A stretch of 64,000 bases of DNA, from IMG/VR virus record IMGVR_UViG_3300029023_000077; one strand, 5' to 3'. Within the stretch, counting starts at the first letter, position 1; each line of letters begins with the position of its first letter. This DNA comes from a virus. Positions 44,968-58,051 of the stretch are shown piece by piece. Below the pieces are notes generated by a model. That model was given only the letters and a program-made list of their open reading frames with translations. It did no database searches and was not told where the DNA came from. The translations under genes were made by a program, and so were the position numbers.

Positions 44968-45189
44968 ATGGCAATAGATATTAAAGAAGCAAGAAAGAAT
45001 TCGTTAGACATGACATTTAGCGAGTTCTTGAGTAACTGTACTGCATGTGGCGGTAATTGGGGTGCCATGTTATTAACTGGTATTAAGAGAGTATTTCCAG
45101 ATAACTATGAGGAAGTAGAGAAGAAATACAATTCTATGGATTTTTCTCATGGTGGTGTTTATCCATTTATGTTTTATGCGAGTGGTTAA
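44968..45189 (+). CDS. hypothetical protein, MAIDIKEARK N-terminal family
   Basis: RBS GGAGGTTTTTTATT-ATG; shared N-terminal motif. Confidence 0.5.
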   Translation: MAIDIKEARKNSLDMTFSEFLSNCTACGGNWGAMLLTGIKRVFPDNYEEVEKKYNSMDFSHGGVYPFMFYASG

Positions 45190-45260
45190 CTGCACATGGT
45201 ATCTATAGTGAAGACAAGAGTTAAGTTTAAAAATAATATTTTATGGATGGAGGTTTTATT

Positions 45261-45641
45261 ATGCTAGATATTAATAAGATGAGAGAAAAACAGGCTTCTG
45301 TTAAAGAAGGTTTAGAATACGATAAGGTTCATGATTTCGACGATTTACAGATGGAAGAAATTAGATTAGGGCTCACTGATGGGCTAGATGTATCTGTCTA
45401 TGCTAAACATGAGTTTGATAGTGAGCAAATGTCAAAAATTAGATTAGGACTTCTCAATGGATTGGATGTATCTGTCTATGCTAAGCCTGAGCTCTCTTGG
45501 AAGCAGATGGAAGAAATTAGATTAGGACTCGCTGATGGACTGGATGTATCTGTTTACGCTAAGCCTGAGCTCTCTTGGAAGCAGATGGAAGAAATTAGAT
45601 TAGGGTTTACCACGTTAACTAAAATTAGAAATATTTTATGA
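45261..45641 (+). CDS. hypothetical protein with 26-aa tandem repeats, MLDINKMREK N-terminus
   Basis: ATG 45261 after GGAGGTTTTATT; 3.5 tandem 78-nt repeats LGLxDGLDVSVYAKPELSWKQMEEIR. Confidence 0.5.
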   Translation: MLDINKMREKQASVKEGLEYDKVHDFDDLQMEEIRLGLTDGLDVSVYAKHEFDSEQMSKIRLGLLNGLDVSVYAKPELSWKQMEEIRLGLADGLDVSVYAKPELSWKQMEEIRLGFTTLTKIRNIL

Positions 45642-45657
45642 AAGAAGGATTTTTATT

Positions 45658-46647
45658 ATGGCAGTAGATATTAAAGAAATGAGAGATAATGGTAAAGGAT
45701 TTACTAGACTGGTTACTTTCCAGTCTAGTAATGTTACGAACGCTATTCTTAAATACGATATAGTCGAAACCCTAGACTCCGTCGAAAACTCTATGCCACA
45801 TGGTGTCAGAAACTGGGAGAAAGATAAATCCTACATAAAAATGAGTGATGGCAGTATCATGACGTTTACTGATAATGAGTCTGATAGAGACAAGATTTAC
45901 TTATTAGCTAAGGATAGGAACAAGATGAAGGTATGGCCTTTCTATGCATATGAGAAACATAGATATTGTGGTGATTTGTATAACATGAGTGTACGTACCG
46001 TGTATAGATTAGCTTCTCATTTTATGGGATATATGGAGTATGAAGGCAGAGATATTATTGAGCTAGTTGTGCCAGAAGAGTATATTTTAGAGTCTCGTGA
46101 AAATGATAATTACCTTGAATGTTTACTGCCATGCATAAAGAAGGAATGGGTTGTTAGCATACTTAGATTTGATGATTATGTAGCAGAGCCTGTGCATGGA
46201 GAGAATGCATTAAGGTACAAGAATGAAGTATACAGGACGGATACCTATCGAATGTGTTATGGGGATGACATAATTCTTAATGGACATGGTTATGGCGATA
46301 ATGTTGAATACTGCATGAGTCCAAGTCTATTAGGCAGAGTAGATGATGTATCAATTCAGAGAGATTACGTTCAGCGCAATATATGGAATCTCTATAAGAA
46401 ATACTTATACATTATAAGACATGGATTAAACATTAATGATATTGTTAGTGTTGATCTTAGGGCTGCAACGGCAGAGATGCCTGATAAGTTAAACTTGGCT
46501 ACAGTACATTCATTTGCATCCTGTTTAGACAAACTGCGTCAGTATACAGGTGTAGATGTTTTAGATAACTCAACACCTTATAGTTTACGTGTTAAGAGTG
46601 TTTCATCAGAATATTGTGAACAGCTTGATAATGACGATGAAAGTTAG
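45658..46647 (+). CDS. hypothetical protein, MAVDIKEMRD N-terminal family
   Basis: 329-aa ORF; acidic C-terminus. Confidence 0.55.
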   Translation: MAVDIKEMRDNGKGFTRLVTFQSSNVTNAILKYDIVETLDSVENSMPHGVRNWEKDKSYIKMSDGSIMTFTDNESDRDKIYLLAKDRNKMKVWPFYAYEKHRYCGDLYNMSVRTVYRLASHFMGYMEYEGRDIIELVVPEEYILESRENDNYLECLLPCIKKEWVVSILRFDDYVAEPVHGENALRYKNEVYRTDTYRMCYGDDIILNGHGYGDNVEYCMSPSLLGRVDDVSIQRDYVQRNIWNLYKKYLYIIRHGLNINDIVSVDLRAATAEMPDKLNLATVHSFASCLDKLRQYTGVDVLDNSTPYSLRVKSVSSEYCEQLDNDDES

Positions 46648-46715
46648 ATGTATGTTAATAAAATTGAGGCGAGGATTTAAAATCCATACAGTAATATCAC
46701 AGGAGTGAAATTGTT

Positions 46716-47021
46716 ATGAGAAAAAGAATAAAGGAAGTCATTAGACTTATTGTTGGATCGGCACTCATTGGTATGAGTGCCGTTATCATTTTAGGTGGAG
46801 CTATTTTGGTGCTATGTAAAGGGTCATATCCTGAATCTATGGTATTTTGGTTATTCACAATATTTTATCTAACCTTTGCCTTGTTTCTTGGCACTTCGTT
46901 AATTTACGCATGTAATAAAGAGATGTGGAACCAGGTCTATGACTCAGGTGGATTACTACAAAAGTTGTTATCAAATTTACGAATTTTCTATGAGTTTGTA
47001 ATGTTTATGACAGTCCTATAG
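46716..47021 (+). CDS. membrane protein
   Basis: 101 aa with three hydrophobic helices. Confidence 0.5.
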   Translation: MRKRIKEVIRLIVGSALIGMSAVIILGGAILVLCKGSYPESMVFWLFTIFYLTFALFLGTSLIYACNKEMWNQVYDSGGLLQKLLSNLRIFYEFVMFMTVL

Positions 47022-47235
47022 ATTAGGAGGAAAGGTAAATGCAAGAAGATATTAGTTTGGCTTTAAATTGTATTCAGTAGTCTTGGTATTAGCCTACATA
47101 TTATGTTCTATATTTATTATTTGTGCTACCTTTACAATTATTGCTGAAGAATGTGGTTGGAGTTTAGATAATTCAGTTTGTCAAATGATAATAGCAATAG
47201 ATAATTGGTTTAAATAGGAATTTGAGGTGAAAATA

Positions 47236-47559
47236 ATGCAGGATGAATTTACAAGTGCAGTCTTAAGGACAATTGCATTTCATGAGCAAGAGATAAAAAG
47301 GTTAAGAGGGATGCTTAACAATAGTACTAGCTATGCAGCTAAGTTGTCAAATAAGCTAGCCGAGATGCATGTAACACAAACAGAGTTGGCGAAGAGTTGT
47401 GGCGTTTCTCAAAAGATAATATCTCGTTATTGTAATGGTGATGTAACTCCTGATGAAGTTATGCAGCAGAAGATTAACGCTGCTCTTGGTTGGGGTAAAA
47501 CAATTGAGGATGCTCTAAAGGGAGGTCCAGCTGATCCTAACGAAGCAACATTCTTTTAG
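47236..47559 (+). CDS. XRE-family helix-turn-helix transcriptional regulator
   Basis: VTQTELAKSCGVSQKIISRYCNGDVTP = HTH_3 pattern; ATG 47236. Confidence 0.6.
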   Translation: MQDEFTSAVLRTIAFHEQEIKRLRGMLNNSTSYAAKLSNKLAEMHVTQTELAKSCGVSQKIISRYCNGDVTPDEVMQQKINAALGWGKTIEDALKGGPADPNEATFF

Positions 47560-56608: not shown

Positions 56609-56610
56609 TT

Positions 56611-56808
56611 ATGGCTATTATCTGCAAAGGTCTAATTTTATTCTTTACAGGAGGCACGAGTTGTTTAGCTCTTAGCCTTATTAAAAACAGTCAGGACAGA
56701 CATGGGAATTATATACCATTACAGGCTAAGTATAAGTTATTATTAGCATTTATGTGGCTTATTACAATTACGATTGATAGTGCTTGTTTCATAATGCTAG
56801 GGAGGTGA
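56611..56808 (+). CDS. small membrane protein
   Basis: 65 aa, two TM helices. Confidence 0.4.
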   Translation: MAIICKGLILFFTGGTSCLALSLIKNSQDRHGNYIPLQAKYKLLLAFMWLITITIDSACFIMLGR

Positions 56809-56815
56809 TTAGACA

Positions 56816-56998
56816 TTGGCATTAGTTACTTTTGCGACTCTACTGTGCATCTGGTCATATGTGCATATGTGGAGGTTATATAAAAATGAAGATGGTGTGA
56901 AAGAACCATTCAGTCCGAGAGCGAAGTTAGGCTTAGGTCTGATGACAACTGGTGTGGTACTTATGAATATTACAGCAATTATTGATAGTCTTATATAG
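56816..56998 (+). CDS. small membrane protein
   Basis: 60 aa, two TM helices. Confidence 0.35.
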   Translation: MALVTFATLLCIWSYVHMWRLYKNEDGVKEPFSPRAKLGLGLMTTGVVLMNITAIIDSLI

Positions 56999-57010
56999 GA
57001 GGGAATTAAC

Positions 57011-57334
57011 ATGTTAGATATTGAAAGTGTTAGAAGTGAGCAGAAGACAAAAGATTCGGATATTGAACTAACAGCAGACCTTAATCTGGCATCCGTTGTT
57101 GATATGATTGGCAAAATCTATAATAAGCGCAGAATTGTTGTCATTGACAGACGCAGCGATGATGTGTTGTGCCGGATTGATAGCGGTGAATCTGATTATG
57201 CACCTGGTATTGAAGAGCAGAGCAGACAGATGAAAATGGAAGATGTTAAATGGTCCAGCGAGGAAGCAAACATTACTAAGGTATATGTTCAGCAAAAACA
57301 GGATATACAGGTAATTGATGTTACCAGAAAGTAG
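57011..57334 (+). CDS. hypothetical protein, MLDIESVRSE N-terminal family
   Basis: 107-aa ORF with RBS GGAGGG. Confidence 0.5.
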   Translation: MLDIESVRSEQKTKDSDIELTADLNLASVVDMIGKIYNKRRIVVIDRRSDDVLCRIDSGESDYAPGIEEQSRQMKMEDVKWSSEEANITKVYVQQKQDIQVIDVTRK

Positions 57335-57340
57335 GTGTCT

Positions 57341-58051
57341 ATGGCTGTTGATATTTCGCAATTATGGGAGAGTCGCTGTAGAAGTGCAATGGAGCAGATA
57401 AATCAGTTACCAATAGAGTCAGGTAGGAGTGCTGCTAAGGGGCAATTGAATGTGCTGGTTGGTTATTTTACAGCATTGATTGACACAAAGCAGATTGATT
57501 ATGATGCCGCAAAGCAGTATGTTGATACAGCGAATGTACTCTATAAAGTCATTGATTTCCGTTATGATGTGTTAGAAGAGTGTGATACGCCGCATTTAAG
57601 GGAAGTCTTGCTGAGGATTAACAGACCAAGCGACATTACAGATATTGTGAGTAGATGCGCAGATACAGAACGGTTCAAGACATGTTGCTTAGGGTATTAT
57701 GTTGCTGATAAATCTATAAAAGATCTTCAAATGACGAACCCACGTATCACTGTGGACTACAAGAAACACTGCTGCCAGGAGATTGCAAAATACCTGTCAT
57801 GTGTTAATGATGTCAATGCTGTCAATAATATTGTGGACCTCTATGGAATTAGGAGATCAACAGCAACAGCACTTGCGAAGGCAGGTATCTATACAAGCGA
57901 CCAGGTAAATGATTCTTCTGATGAGAAGTTGTTAAGTTTACCAGGTATAGGGCAGGATAGCCTGCATCAGTTAAGAAAAAGGCTTCGCTGTAAGTATTAT
58001 GCAAATCCGGAGCCAAGCTATATTGCAAGACCTAACGAAAATTTTGGTTAG
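57341..58051 (+). CDS. hypothetical protein with C-terminal helix-hairpin-helix, MAVDISQLW family
   Basis: ATG 57341 (ORF open from GTG 57335); LLSLPGIGQDSLHQL HhH-like. Confidence 0.5.
   Translation: MAVDISQLWESRCRSAMEQINQLPIESGRSAAKGQLNVLVGYFTALIDTKQIDYDAAKQYVDTANVLYKVIDFRYDVLEECDTPHLREVLLRINRPSDITDIVSRCADTERFKTCCLGYYVADKSIKDLQMTNPRITVDYKKHCCQEIAKYLSCVNDVNAVNNIVDLYGIRRSTATALAKAGIYTSDQVNDSSDEKLLSLPGIGQDSLHQLRKRLRCKYYANPEPSYIARPNENFG

Follow-up and report, generated by a model that had tools for sequence, protein, structure and literature searches.

Twelve genes in a 64,000-nucleotide (nt) stretch of viral DNA (IMG/VR virus record IMGVR_UViG_3300029023_000077; this whole stretch is the window referred to below) begin with variants of one short peptide, built around D-I-x-x-x-R and placed in front of mostly unrelated protein bodies. 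Here, we report that this N-terminal motif is probably an address tag, acting at the protein level and read by a receptor encoded in the same genome, which appears to be that of a jumbo phage. Its destination can be named only tentatively; the tagged proteins may be loaded into the capsid and injected with the DNA.

Genes in the window were called by a simple procedure guided by Shine-Dalgarno (SD) sites, giving 96 non-overlapping plus-strand genes. The pattern ^M.{0,2}DI...R matched the starts of 11 of these against 0.057 expected (Poisson P = 4.6e-22), and the enrichment is confined to the N-terminus, since DI...R inside proteins was not in excess (5 observed, 3.4 expected). A first-pass annotation of this DNA had listed at least ten otherwise unrelated genes sharing such a start; every listed start does carry the motif, and the gene-wide count bears out the excess. 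The list itself changed in places. The start given at 50701 (TTG) more likely lies at 50707, where an ATG follows a 7-nt SD site, and gene 34709 (MIDISKER) is a further full match that had not been listed. Gene 57341 has the expected MAVDIS start, with Trp in place of the Arg, and is counted as a partial match, which brings the number of tagged genes to 12. After removal of the first 12 residues, nine of the tagged proteins were without mutual similarity, as had been claimed for all, but 53881, 54416, and 55280 proved to be paralogs (E = 2e-5 to 2e-18); with three paralogs among 12 genes, the tag stands before ten independent cargo families. The consensus from 22 distinct tags of this genome and close relatives (counts after the letters) is [M14/A6]-[L/V/I/K]-D19-I22-x-x-[M7 or other]-R21-[E/K/D], followed by approximately 5 to 12 variable linker residues. 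The tagged proteins are acidic (pI 4.8 to 6.3 in 11 of 12), and scans against Pfam and PHROGs gave nothing firm for most of the cargo; PDB sequence searches with two large neighboring open reading frames gave no match.

All 12 genes lie on the plus strand. Gene 27788-28033 (81 amino acids [aa]; tag MAVDINAMR, 27788-27814) encodes the nucleotidyltransferase noted in the first pass; the AbiEii-type match is there, but the product is an N-terminal fragment that matches only the first part of the AbiEii models (PADLOC, E = 4.7e-6; Pfam, 19.3 bits, below the 22.5 cutoff). Gene 34709-35839 (376 aa; tag MIDISKER, 34709-34732) belongs to an ABC/PtuA-like ATPase family that is normally tag-less. Three tagged genes then follow closely: 44968-45189 (73 aa; tag MAIDIKEAR, 44968-44994), 45261-45641 (126 aa; tag MLDINKMR, 45261-45284), and 45658-46647 (329 aa; tag MAVDIKEMR, 45658-45684), the last with an ADP-ribosyltransferase (ART)-like fold and from a family, called A1 here, in which tags are swapped between lineages. 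Residues 15 to 72 of the 44968 product are homologous to residues 67 to 124 of the untagged 48665 product (BLASTP, E = 2e-14), which has a hydrophobic N-terminal region where 44968 has its tag. The body of the 45261 protein consists of three 26-aa tandem repeats (unit ..EEIRLGLxDGLDVSVYAKPE..), seen in the DNA as three tandem 78-nt repeats at 45348-45604 (+); a related 29-nt piece lies at 44526-44554, 5' of gene 44589. Beside the ART-like gene, the ADP-ribosylation toolkit includes a microbial-type PARG at 37810-38616 (+) (97 bits), and a faint NADAR-DarT1 match was seen 10 kb downstream of the window (L009, 19497-20048). Genes 47761-48441 (226 aa; tag MSTDIKVTR, 47761-47787) and 50707-51465 (252 aa; tag MLDIQSMR, 50707-50730) have no assigned cargo family. 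The paralogs are 53881-54363 (160 aa; tag MVDIREQR, 53881-53904), 54416-55267 (283 aa; tag MKDIRLMR, 54416-54439, the sole tag with CGC for Arg), and 55280-56608 (442 aa; tag MKDIQAER, 55280-55303), in which the domain in common with 54416 is duplicated internally. The last two are 57011-57334 (107 aa; tag MLDIESVR, 57011-57034) and 57341-58051 (236 aa; partial tag MAVDISQLW, 57341-57367), the latter with a helix-hairpin-helix domain (HHH_5, E = 9.6e-6, just below the cutoff).

The tag behaves as a module that can be gained, lost, or exchanged while the body stays unchanged. Among 46 homologs of the 45658 protein, conservation of the body sets in at RLVTFQS (residue 17). MAVDIKEMR is kept in the closest homologs, with an indel directly after the tag; more distant ones have MNELLRAAQAG, MDLLSIADGISS, MANLEELLCAANKAG, MSSLLEIAGG, or MGFWDELVEQAEVG before the same body, and several have no extension, the tag-less start in genome L012 being genuine because stop codons lie directly upstream. 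The 34709 family (454 homologs) behaves likewise: 13 more distant full-length members that were inspected start at the body, and among the full-length proteins inspected, only the closest (P0059) is tagged (MKDITKLRD), while a fragment (P0091) has MINISKVRA. The helix-turn-helix (HTH) gene 47236 has a stop six codons upstream in the window, and its ortholog in L001 starts with MVLNIDDSREKTV-. In L010, a variant genome, the syntenic region holds other cargo behind the same tags (MLDINVARKD, MKDIQIERGN, and MLDIESVRNGN); the last is nucleotide identical to the tag of 57011, sits on a different 282-aa cargo, and is unrelated from the next codon on. In two gene pairs, the sequences are identical up to the end of the tag and unrelated from there on, which places recombination breakpoints at the tag end. 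The same tag persists in homologs at 61 to 90% identity. In AlphaFold models of the 45658 and 34709 proteins (pLDDT of 86 and 88), residues 1 to 12 are of low confidence (pLDDT of <50 for nearly all) and form a short free helix, with the fold beginning at residue 15; as modeled, the tag is a flexible short helix that is not packed on the folded body. Among the claims of the first-pass annotation, that of a short portable leader on diverse cargo thus gained strong support, from the unstructured appendage, from the swaps between orthologs, and from the tags of sister genomes.

Loci of 21 kb around the A1-family gene were read in six other genomes. A close relative, L001 (Hadza NODE_26, 318,752 bp), carries eight tags of the kind described above and one of another kind (MNDLLRAANRSN, on a DUF285/leucine-rich repeat [LRR] protein). 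Altogether, the tags appear to fall into at least two families: type A, [M/A]-phi-D-I-x-x-phi-R, and type B, M-[N/D]-x-L-L-x-A-A with local variants. In L002 the tags are MNELLRAAQAG, MNELLNAAQAG, MNPLLTAARAGG, MNKLMEAARAI, and MNDLLKAASMGG, with MN.L[LM].A[AS] at the start of 5 of 19 genes against 6.7e-5 expected; in L004 they are MDLLDIIDGINK, MDLVNLADGISN, and MDLLSIADGISS, with MDL[LV].[IL][AI]DGI in 3 of 27 genes; and L005, L006, and L012 each have their own recurring variant, in pairs or triplets. Tagged proteins within one sister genome are mutually unrelated. The A1 ortholog, where tagged, carries the tag of the local genome, and the tag on HipA-like kinases is that of L002 in L002 and that of L006 in L006, with untagged kinases in L005 and in the window (58849-60123 [+], 424 aa, with an N-x-D-R-H-x-x-N motif; split in the simple gene call). 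Tag type therefore follows the genome and not the cargo. From the local tag on orthologous cargo, together with a tag of its own in each genome, we infer that each genome encodes a matching receptor. The cargo of relatives also includes a PDDEXK_2 protein behind MIDINVKR (L009), an RNA_pol_A_CTD protein (34 bits) behind MAVDIKEMRE (L001), a HipA_C-like kinase, and a Condensation-like domain. An FtsK/SpoIIIE-like P-loop protein (MK[VIT]KD.E..IFTPG...) adjoins the ART-like gene in three type-B genomes (L002, 12546-13547; L004, 11074-12384; L012, 7484-8410) and has no counterpart in the window or its flanks.

What is conserved is the peptide. Between orthologs, 8 of 81 tag codons had changed, compared with 47 of 99 in the next 11 codons, and the changes at D, I, and R were all synonymous (for example, 45261 and its L001 ortholog differ in the Ile codon of the tag). 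MLDIQSMRK is kept in three of three homologs of the 50707 product, and the L001 ortholog of 47761 starts MATDIKVTR. Type-A tags use ATT, ATA, or ATC for Ile and have one CGC Arg, and the Leu and Ala codons of type-B tags vary freely among synonyms. The start of the peptide shows a register of its own. Forms with two residues before D-I have a small residue 2 (A, S, or V) in 8 of 8 cases, from which removal of the initiator Met is predicted, and forms with one residue before D-I have L, K, or I there in 11 of 12; the predicted mature N-terminus would thus always lie two residues before D-I (Fisher P = 7e-5, a value that is overstated because shared tags are not phylogenetically independent, which takes something from the case). 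An RNA or DNA signal is not expected to show a Met-removal register, and no unusual RNA folding was seen in the start regions, so that selection appears to act on the protein.

We therefore take as our favored reading a portable N-terminal address peptide, [M/A]-[L/V/I/K]-D-I-x-x-[M/hydrophobic]-R-[E/K/D], that would act at the protein level and spread by recombination of a small 5' module (SD site plus the first 8 to 9 codons). Its receptor would be part of the assembling prohead (core, scaffold, or portal), and the large capsid would take up the tagged enzymes for injection together with the DNA, so that they could modify or cut molecules of the host. The predicted composition of the tagged set is compatible with such a role: an ART-like protein, an ABC/PtuA-like ATPase, and a nucleotidyltransferase fragment here and, in relatives, a putative PD-(D/E)XK nuclease, HipA-like kinases, and an RNA polymerase alpha-C-terminal-domain (alpha-CTD)-like protein. 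The first-pass annotation had drawn an analogy with the capsid-targeting sequence (CTS) of phage T4. This analogy is plausible and is strengthened by the ART-like cargo, T4 Alt being a packaged and injected ADP-ribosyltransferase. The prohead protease site of T4 type that was to be expected with it was not borne out, as I-x-E occurs in only 3 of 12 tags (44968, 45658, and 53881).

Several observations weigh against one or the other half of this reading. The tag Arg is AGA in 10 of 11 cases, compared with 51% in other 5' ends (P = 0.007), an over-use that points to some nucleotide-level or common-descent effect and agrees with a common origin of the module or with a slight preference for starts rich in A. 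Capsid, portal, scaffold, and prohead-protease genes were not found in the 84 kb of this genome over which gene content was read, and the 12 tags have no consistent cleavage motif after the Arg. The cargo is acidic, unlike the basic internal proteins of T4. Finally, 12% of genes here and 26% in the L002 locus make a large share for packaged cargo.

The same peptide could instead dock its cargo to a hub other than the capsid, such as a chaperone, a protease adaptor that times the destruction of early proteins, an inhibitor of toxic enzymes, or an intracellular compartment built by the phage; we regard this as rather unlikely, yet it is the strongest of the alternatives. The evidence for a genome-specific, portable, N-terminus-registered peptide fits it equally well, and the acidic cargo and high tagged share suit an intracellular system better than packing beside DNA. 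The tagged genes also sit among replication and accessory genes, in the kind of region that is typical of early genes, and the occurrence of the same domain with either a tag (44968) or a hydrophobic N-terminal region (48665) suggests alternative localization signals. Against a hub of this kind, the neighborhood of the tagged genes yielded no candidate receptor, no compartment shell, and no dedicated protease, and literature searches gave no phage precedent for a degron or docking tag shared in this way. A retropepsin-like gene that lies between two tagged genes of L006 was considered and rejected, being a weak match with no counterpart in the window or elsewhere.

The first-pass annotation had also proposed a cassette-like 5' module. 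As the way in which the tag spreads, recombination of such a module agrees with the data; as the reason why it is kept, with the SD site, spacer, and first 8 to 9 codons conserved as DNA or RNA for translation initiation and/or shuffling and the peptide a by-product, it is unlikely. The upstream DNA said to be common to 44968, 45261, and 45658 is indeed there. Blocks lie at 44936-44967 (TATATTTTATGAATGGAGGTTTTTTATT; repeat families D3, D8, and D9), 45231-45260 (AATAATATTTTATGGATGGAGGTTTTATT; family D8), and 45626-45657 (repeat D3; overlapping the last codons and stop of the upstream gene), all on the plus strand, the first and third as part of a 65-nt repeat (44936-45000 and 45626-45690, 83% identity) that spans -32 to +33 of its genes and the second as a 30-nt relative. 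These blocks, the two pairs that are identical up to the end of the tag, the over-use of AGA and AT-rich codons, and initiation regions that are unstructured (no unusual RNA folding, z = -1.55 to +1.12) would all suit a nucleotide-level module. However, most tags have no common upstream DNA, and tag-less orthologs have equally strong SD sites. The distance from ATG to GATAT (+7 or +10) varies in step with the Met-removal rule, which is sensible only for a protein; type-B tags are G+C richer and vary synonymously while keeping their residues; and substitutions are conservative in amino acid (D to N or S; L, V, or I at -1), with one Arg encoded by CGC and one Ile by ATC. Above all, a cassette accounts for the spread of a tag and not for a different peptide kept in each sister genome.

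The upstream blocks contain a WATATTTTATR core, found five times in the window against 0.95 expected (36410, 44940, 45235, 45630, and 58075; plus strand) and always 17 to 35 nt upstream of a gene start. The copies at 36410 and 58075 precede untagged genes, so the core is not tag specific; it may be a phage-specific promoter or processing site. Sigma-70-like promoters were not in excess (54 against 64 expected). Terminator-like hairpins were (13 against 5.2 expected in 43.5 to 58.5 kb), with no link to tags; examples with T-tracts lie at 53841-53859, 5' of tagged gene 53881, and at 51629-51648, 5' of gene 51658 (both plus strand).

A secretion tag was another proposal of the first pass. An export signal, directing proteins out of the cell or into the envelope by, for example, a phage-encoded ATPase-driven machine, is very improbable. 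In its favor are a T2SSE-family ATPase encoded in the window (124 bits), an EssC-like FtsK/SpoIIIE protein in a relative (L011), of at least 1,171 aa and followed by small membrane proteins, and a type-B cargo that is a DUF285/LRR_5 protein, of a kind usually found on the cell surface. The tag, however, is polar and lacks a hydrophobic core and twin-arginine, lipobox, prepilin (G-F-T-L-x-E), or double-glycine features, and transmembrane-like segments (19-residue window, mean hydropathy of >1.6) occur in 0 of 12 tagged proteins but in 16 of 84 others. Cargo such as an HTH regulator, the RNA polymerase alpha-CTD-like protein, nucleases, and kinases acts in the cytoplasm, some of it binding DNA or RNA polymerase. 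Two specific routes were rejected: export by the T2SSE-family ATPase, which adjoins no pilin, platform, or other gene with a secretion domain, and type VII-like export, since no shared tag was seen in the locus read from the genome that has the EssC-like gene. That locus (L011, 1-6531 of a 200-kb contig) has an EssC-like protein with two ATPase matches, four small membrane proteins, and two helical proteins of approximately 100 aa, a layout that resembles type VII secretion, with no WXG100 or other supporting Pfam match. That the tag has no function, being left over from repeated duplication of a single 5' end or similar by chance, is the least credible reading: descent clearly links some copies, and three genes are paralogs, but chance is opposed by P of ~5e-22, D, I, and R stay fixed while linker and body diverge, tags persist in homologs as given above, and independent tag families behave alike in other genomes.

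If the favored reading of an address tag is extended to the relatives, a previously undescribed clade of 180- to 350-kb gut phage-like elements might use interchangeable, genome-specific N-terminal "zip codes" to route 10 to 25% of their accessory proteins, ART-, kinase-, and nuclease-like enzymes among them, to a coevolving receptor, a generalization that we put forward with considerable reserve. Were the destination the capsid, dozens of separate effectors would be injected, with a repertoire readable from sequence, and the tags would form a new and much expanded variant of the CTS principle and a ready-made means of loading foreign proteins; were it not, this would be protein sorting of a kind not known in phages. 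Experimental knowledge of short sorting peptides common to many phage proteins comes from essentially one system, the T4 CTS; the same logic appears here on a much larger scale, and full-text literature searches found no description of tags such as these. The tags mark proteins of unknown function as functionally linked (the ART-like protein, the PtuA-like ATPase, the HipA-like kinases, and the 54416/55280 family) and allow candidate delivered effectors or anti-defense proteins to be listed among ORFans from sequence alone, and the differing tag types of sister genomes constitute a natural covariation experiment for finding the receptor.

The window was 100% identical to positions 115,868 to 179,867 of an ENA metagenome contig (ERZ27239532 k119_29866; 350,828 bp) over the 12.9-kb and 12.0-kb stretches compared; the 84 kb read for gene content belong to this 351-kb contig. 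Every long open reading frame (ORF) of the window is on the plus strand, with G+C of 0.32 to 0.40 and strong GGAGG-type SD sites. Encoded in the 84 kb are a family-A DNA polymerase, RNase H, a primase-like protein, a UvrD helicase, Mre11-like phosphoesterases, a clamp-loader subunit, a GreA-like factor, the T2SSE-family ATPase, an actin/ParM-like protein, PARG, a transfer-messenger RNA (tmRNA), and a tRNA. No relatives were found among GenBank phages (megablast and tblastn), in IMG/VR (by protein, by alignment, or by the back-translated MAVDIKEMR pattern), or among GTDB genomes, and plasmids gave distant ATPase matches only; homologs were confined to metagenome contigs, many of 140 to 350 kb and one of 560 kb. 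Judging by gene content and layout, we infer an uncultivated jumbo phage from the gut; no capsid gene is among the genes read.

Within the replication module, the stretch 13700-19665 (plus strand) holds a GreA/GreB-like factor (13700-14197), a 680-aa ORF without matches, the T2SSE-family (GspE/PilB/VirB11-like) ATPase (16254-17648), and the actin/ParM-like protein (18511-19665). Just 5' of the tag-rich region is a complete tmRNA gene (41680-42076 [+]; Rfam RF00023, 87 bits; ARAGORN tag peptide ATRRPMAIAA), followed by a noncoding stretch (43900-44560 [+]) with a tRNA at 44235-44300 that scored 44 bits in a local Rfam scan and was missed by ARAGORN and by a whole-window gathering scan. On either side of the tRNA lies a copy of a 36-nt direct repeat (43993-44028 and 44354-44389; 89% identical), and the 15 nt at 44487-44501 resemble the tmRNA 3' end. 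The tag region has no Rfam families, the tmRNA and tRNA lying elsewhere. Sister genomes carry chemotaxis and cyclic di-GMP (c-di-GMP) parts (MCPsignal, HAMP, PilZ, and a CheY-like receiver) along with Band_7, CotH, Fic, and glycosyltransferase genes (L001, 16747-18213; L002, 2652-3341 and 15143-16474; L004, 1926-4482; L012, 1736-2998 and 4221-4577), which suggests manipulation of host motility and the host surface.

Among known systems, double-glycine leaders are 15 to 30 residues long, end in GG, GA, or GS, have hydrophobic residues at -4, -7, and -12, and are cleaved by C39-peptidase ABC exporters. Some type-B tags of sister genomes (MSSLLEIAGG and MNDLLKAASMGG) resemble their ...ELxxIxGG end, but the tags are approximately 10 residues long and their cargo consists of enzymes of 70 to 470 aa, not small peptides. 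Leaders of this class were ruled out, since type A lacks Gly and the hydrophobic spacing is inconsistent in several type-B tags; family scans of the window and loci found no C39 peptidase or ABC exporter. The PeSL elements of T4-type phages are noncoding promoter-early stem-loop units that flank shuffled ORFans. They may have in common with the tags a short conserved 5' module, a hyperplastic region of small novel genes, and breakpoints at the module; the conserved part here is mostly coding and peptide level, with no excess of sigma-70-type promoters and no tag-linked excess of hairpins.

Bacterial microcompartments use encapsulation peptides, and encapsulins use cargo-loading peptides. Both are short, amphipathic helices at a protein terminus that a weakly conserved linker connects to diverse enzymes and that a protein shell recognizes; the shells of encapsulins have the HK97 fold in common with phage capsids. 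The tags are alike in being a short terminal helix on a variable linker before diverse enzymes; the known peptides differ in being approximately 18 residues long or C-terminal, in their consensus, and in having shell genes nearby, none of which were seen here. MuF toxins are effectors fused to a head-protein domain of approximately 300 aa, whereas here a 9-residue tag is carried by each of many separate genes. Polyvalent proteins (Iyer et al. 2017, as cited in PMC7824862) are similar in delivering enzymatic effectors (ART, GNAT, nucleases, and kinases) with the DNA in host-virus conflict, and injected ART- and GNAT-bearing examples are described (PMC7824862); in polyvalent proteins the effectors are fused in one giant protein, in contrast to the separately tagged genes of this genome. 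Jumbo phages are known for packing many ejection proteins.

The closest parallel is the CTS of T4, found on the internal proteins known as IPI, IPII, and IPIII, together with the N-propeptide of Alt. The CTS takes up the first 10 residues of internal proteins that otherwise diverge, suffices for the loading of foreign proteins, and stands before a cargo set that varies among related phages (PMC9026906, PMC9958956), and Alt, the packaged ADP-ribosyltransferase, sheds an N-propeptide of 7 residues and enters the host by ejection (PMC9026906). The tags would match it in occupying approximately 10 extreme N-terminal residues on divergent proteins of one phage, in being portable to other cargo, in a cargo set that varies between related phages, and in having an ADP-ribosyltransferase among the proteins delivered (T4) or tagged (here, where it is known from genes alone). 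They differ in that their consensus shares nothing with the T4 sequence, MKTYQEFIAE, and that a consistent L/I-x-E protease site is lacking. The cargo proteins here are acidic and frequently large (up to 442 aa), there are many more tagged genes, and at least two unrelated tag families occur within one clade.

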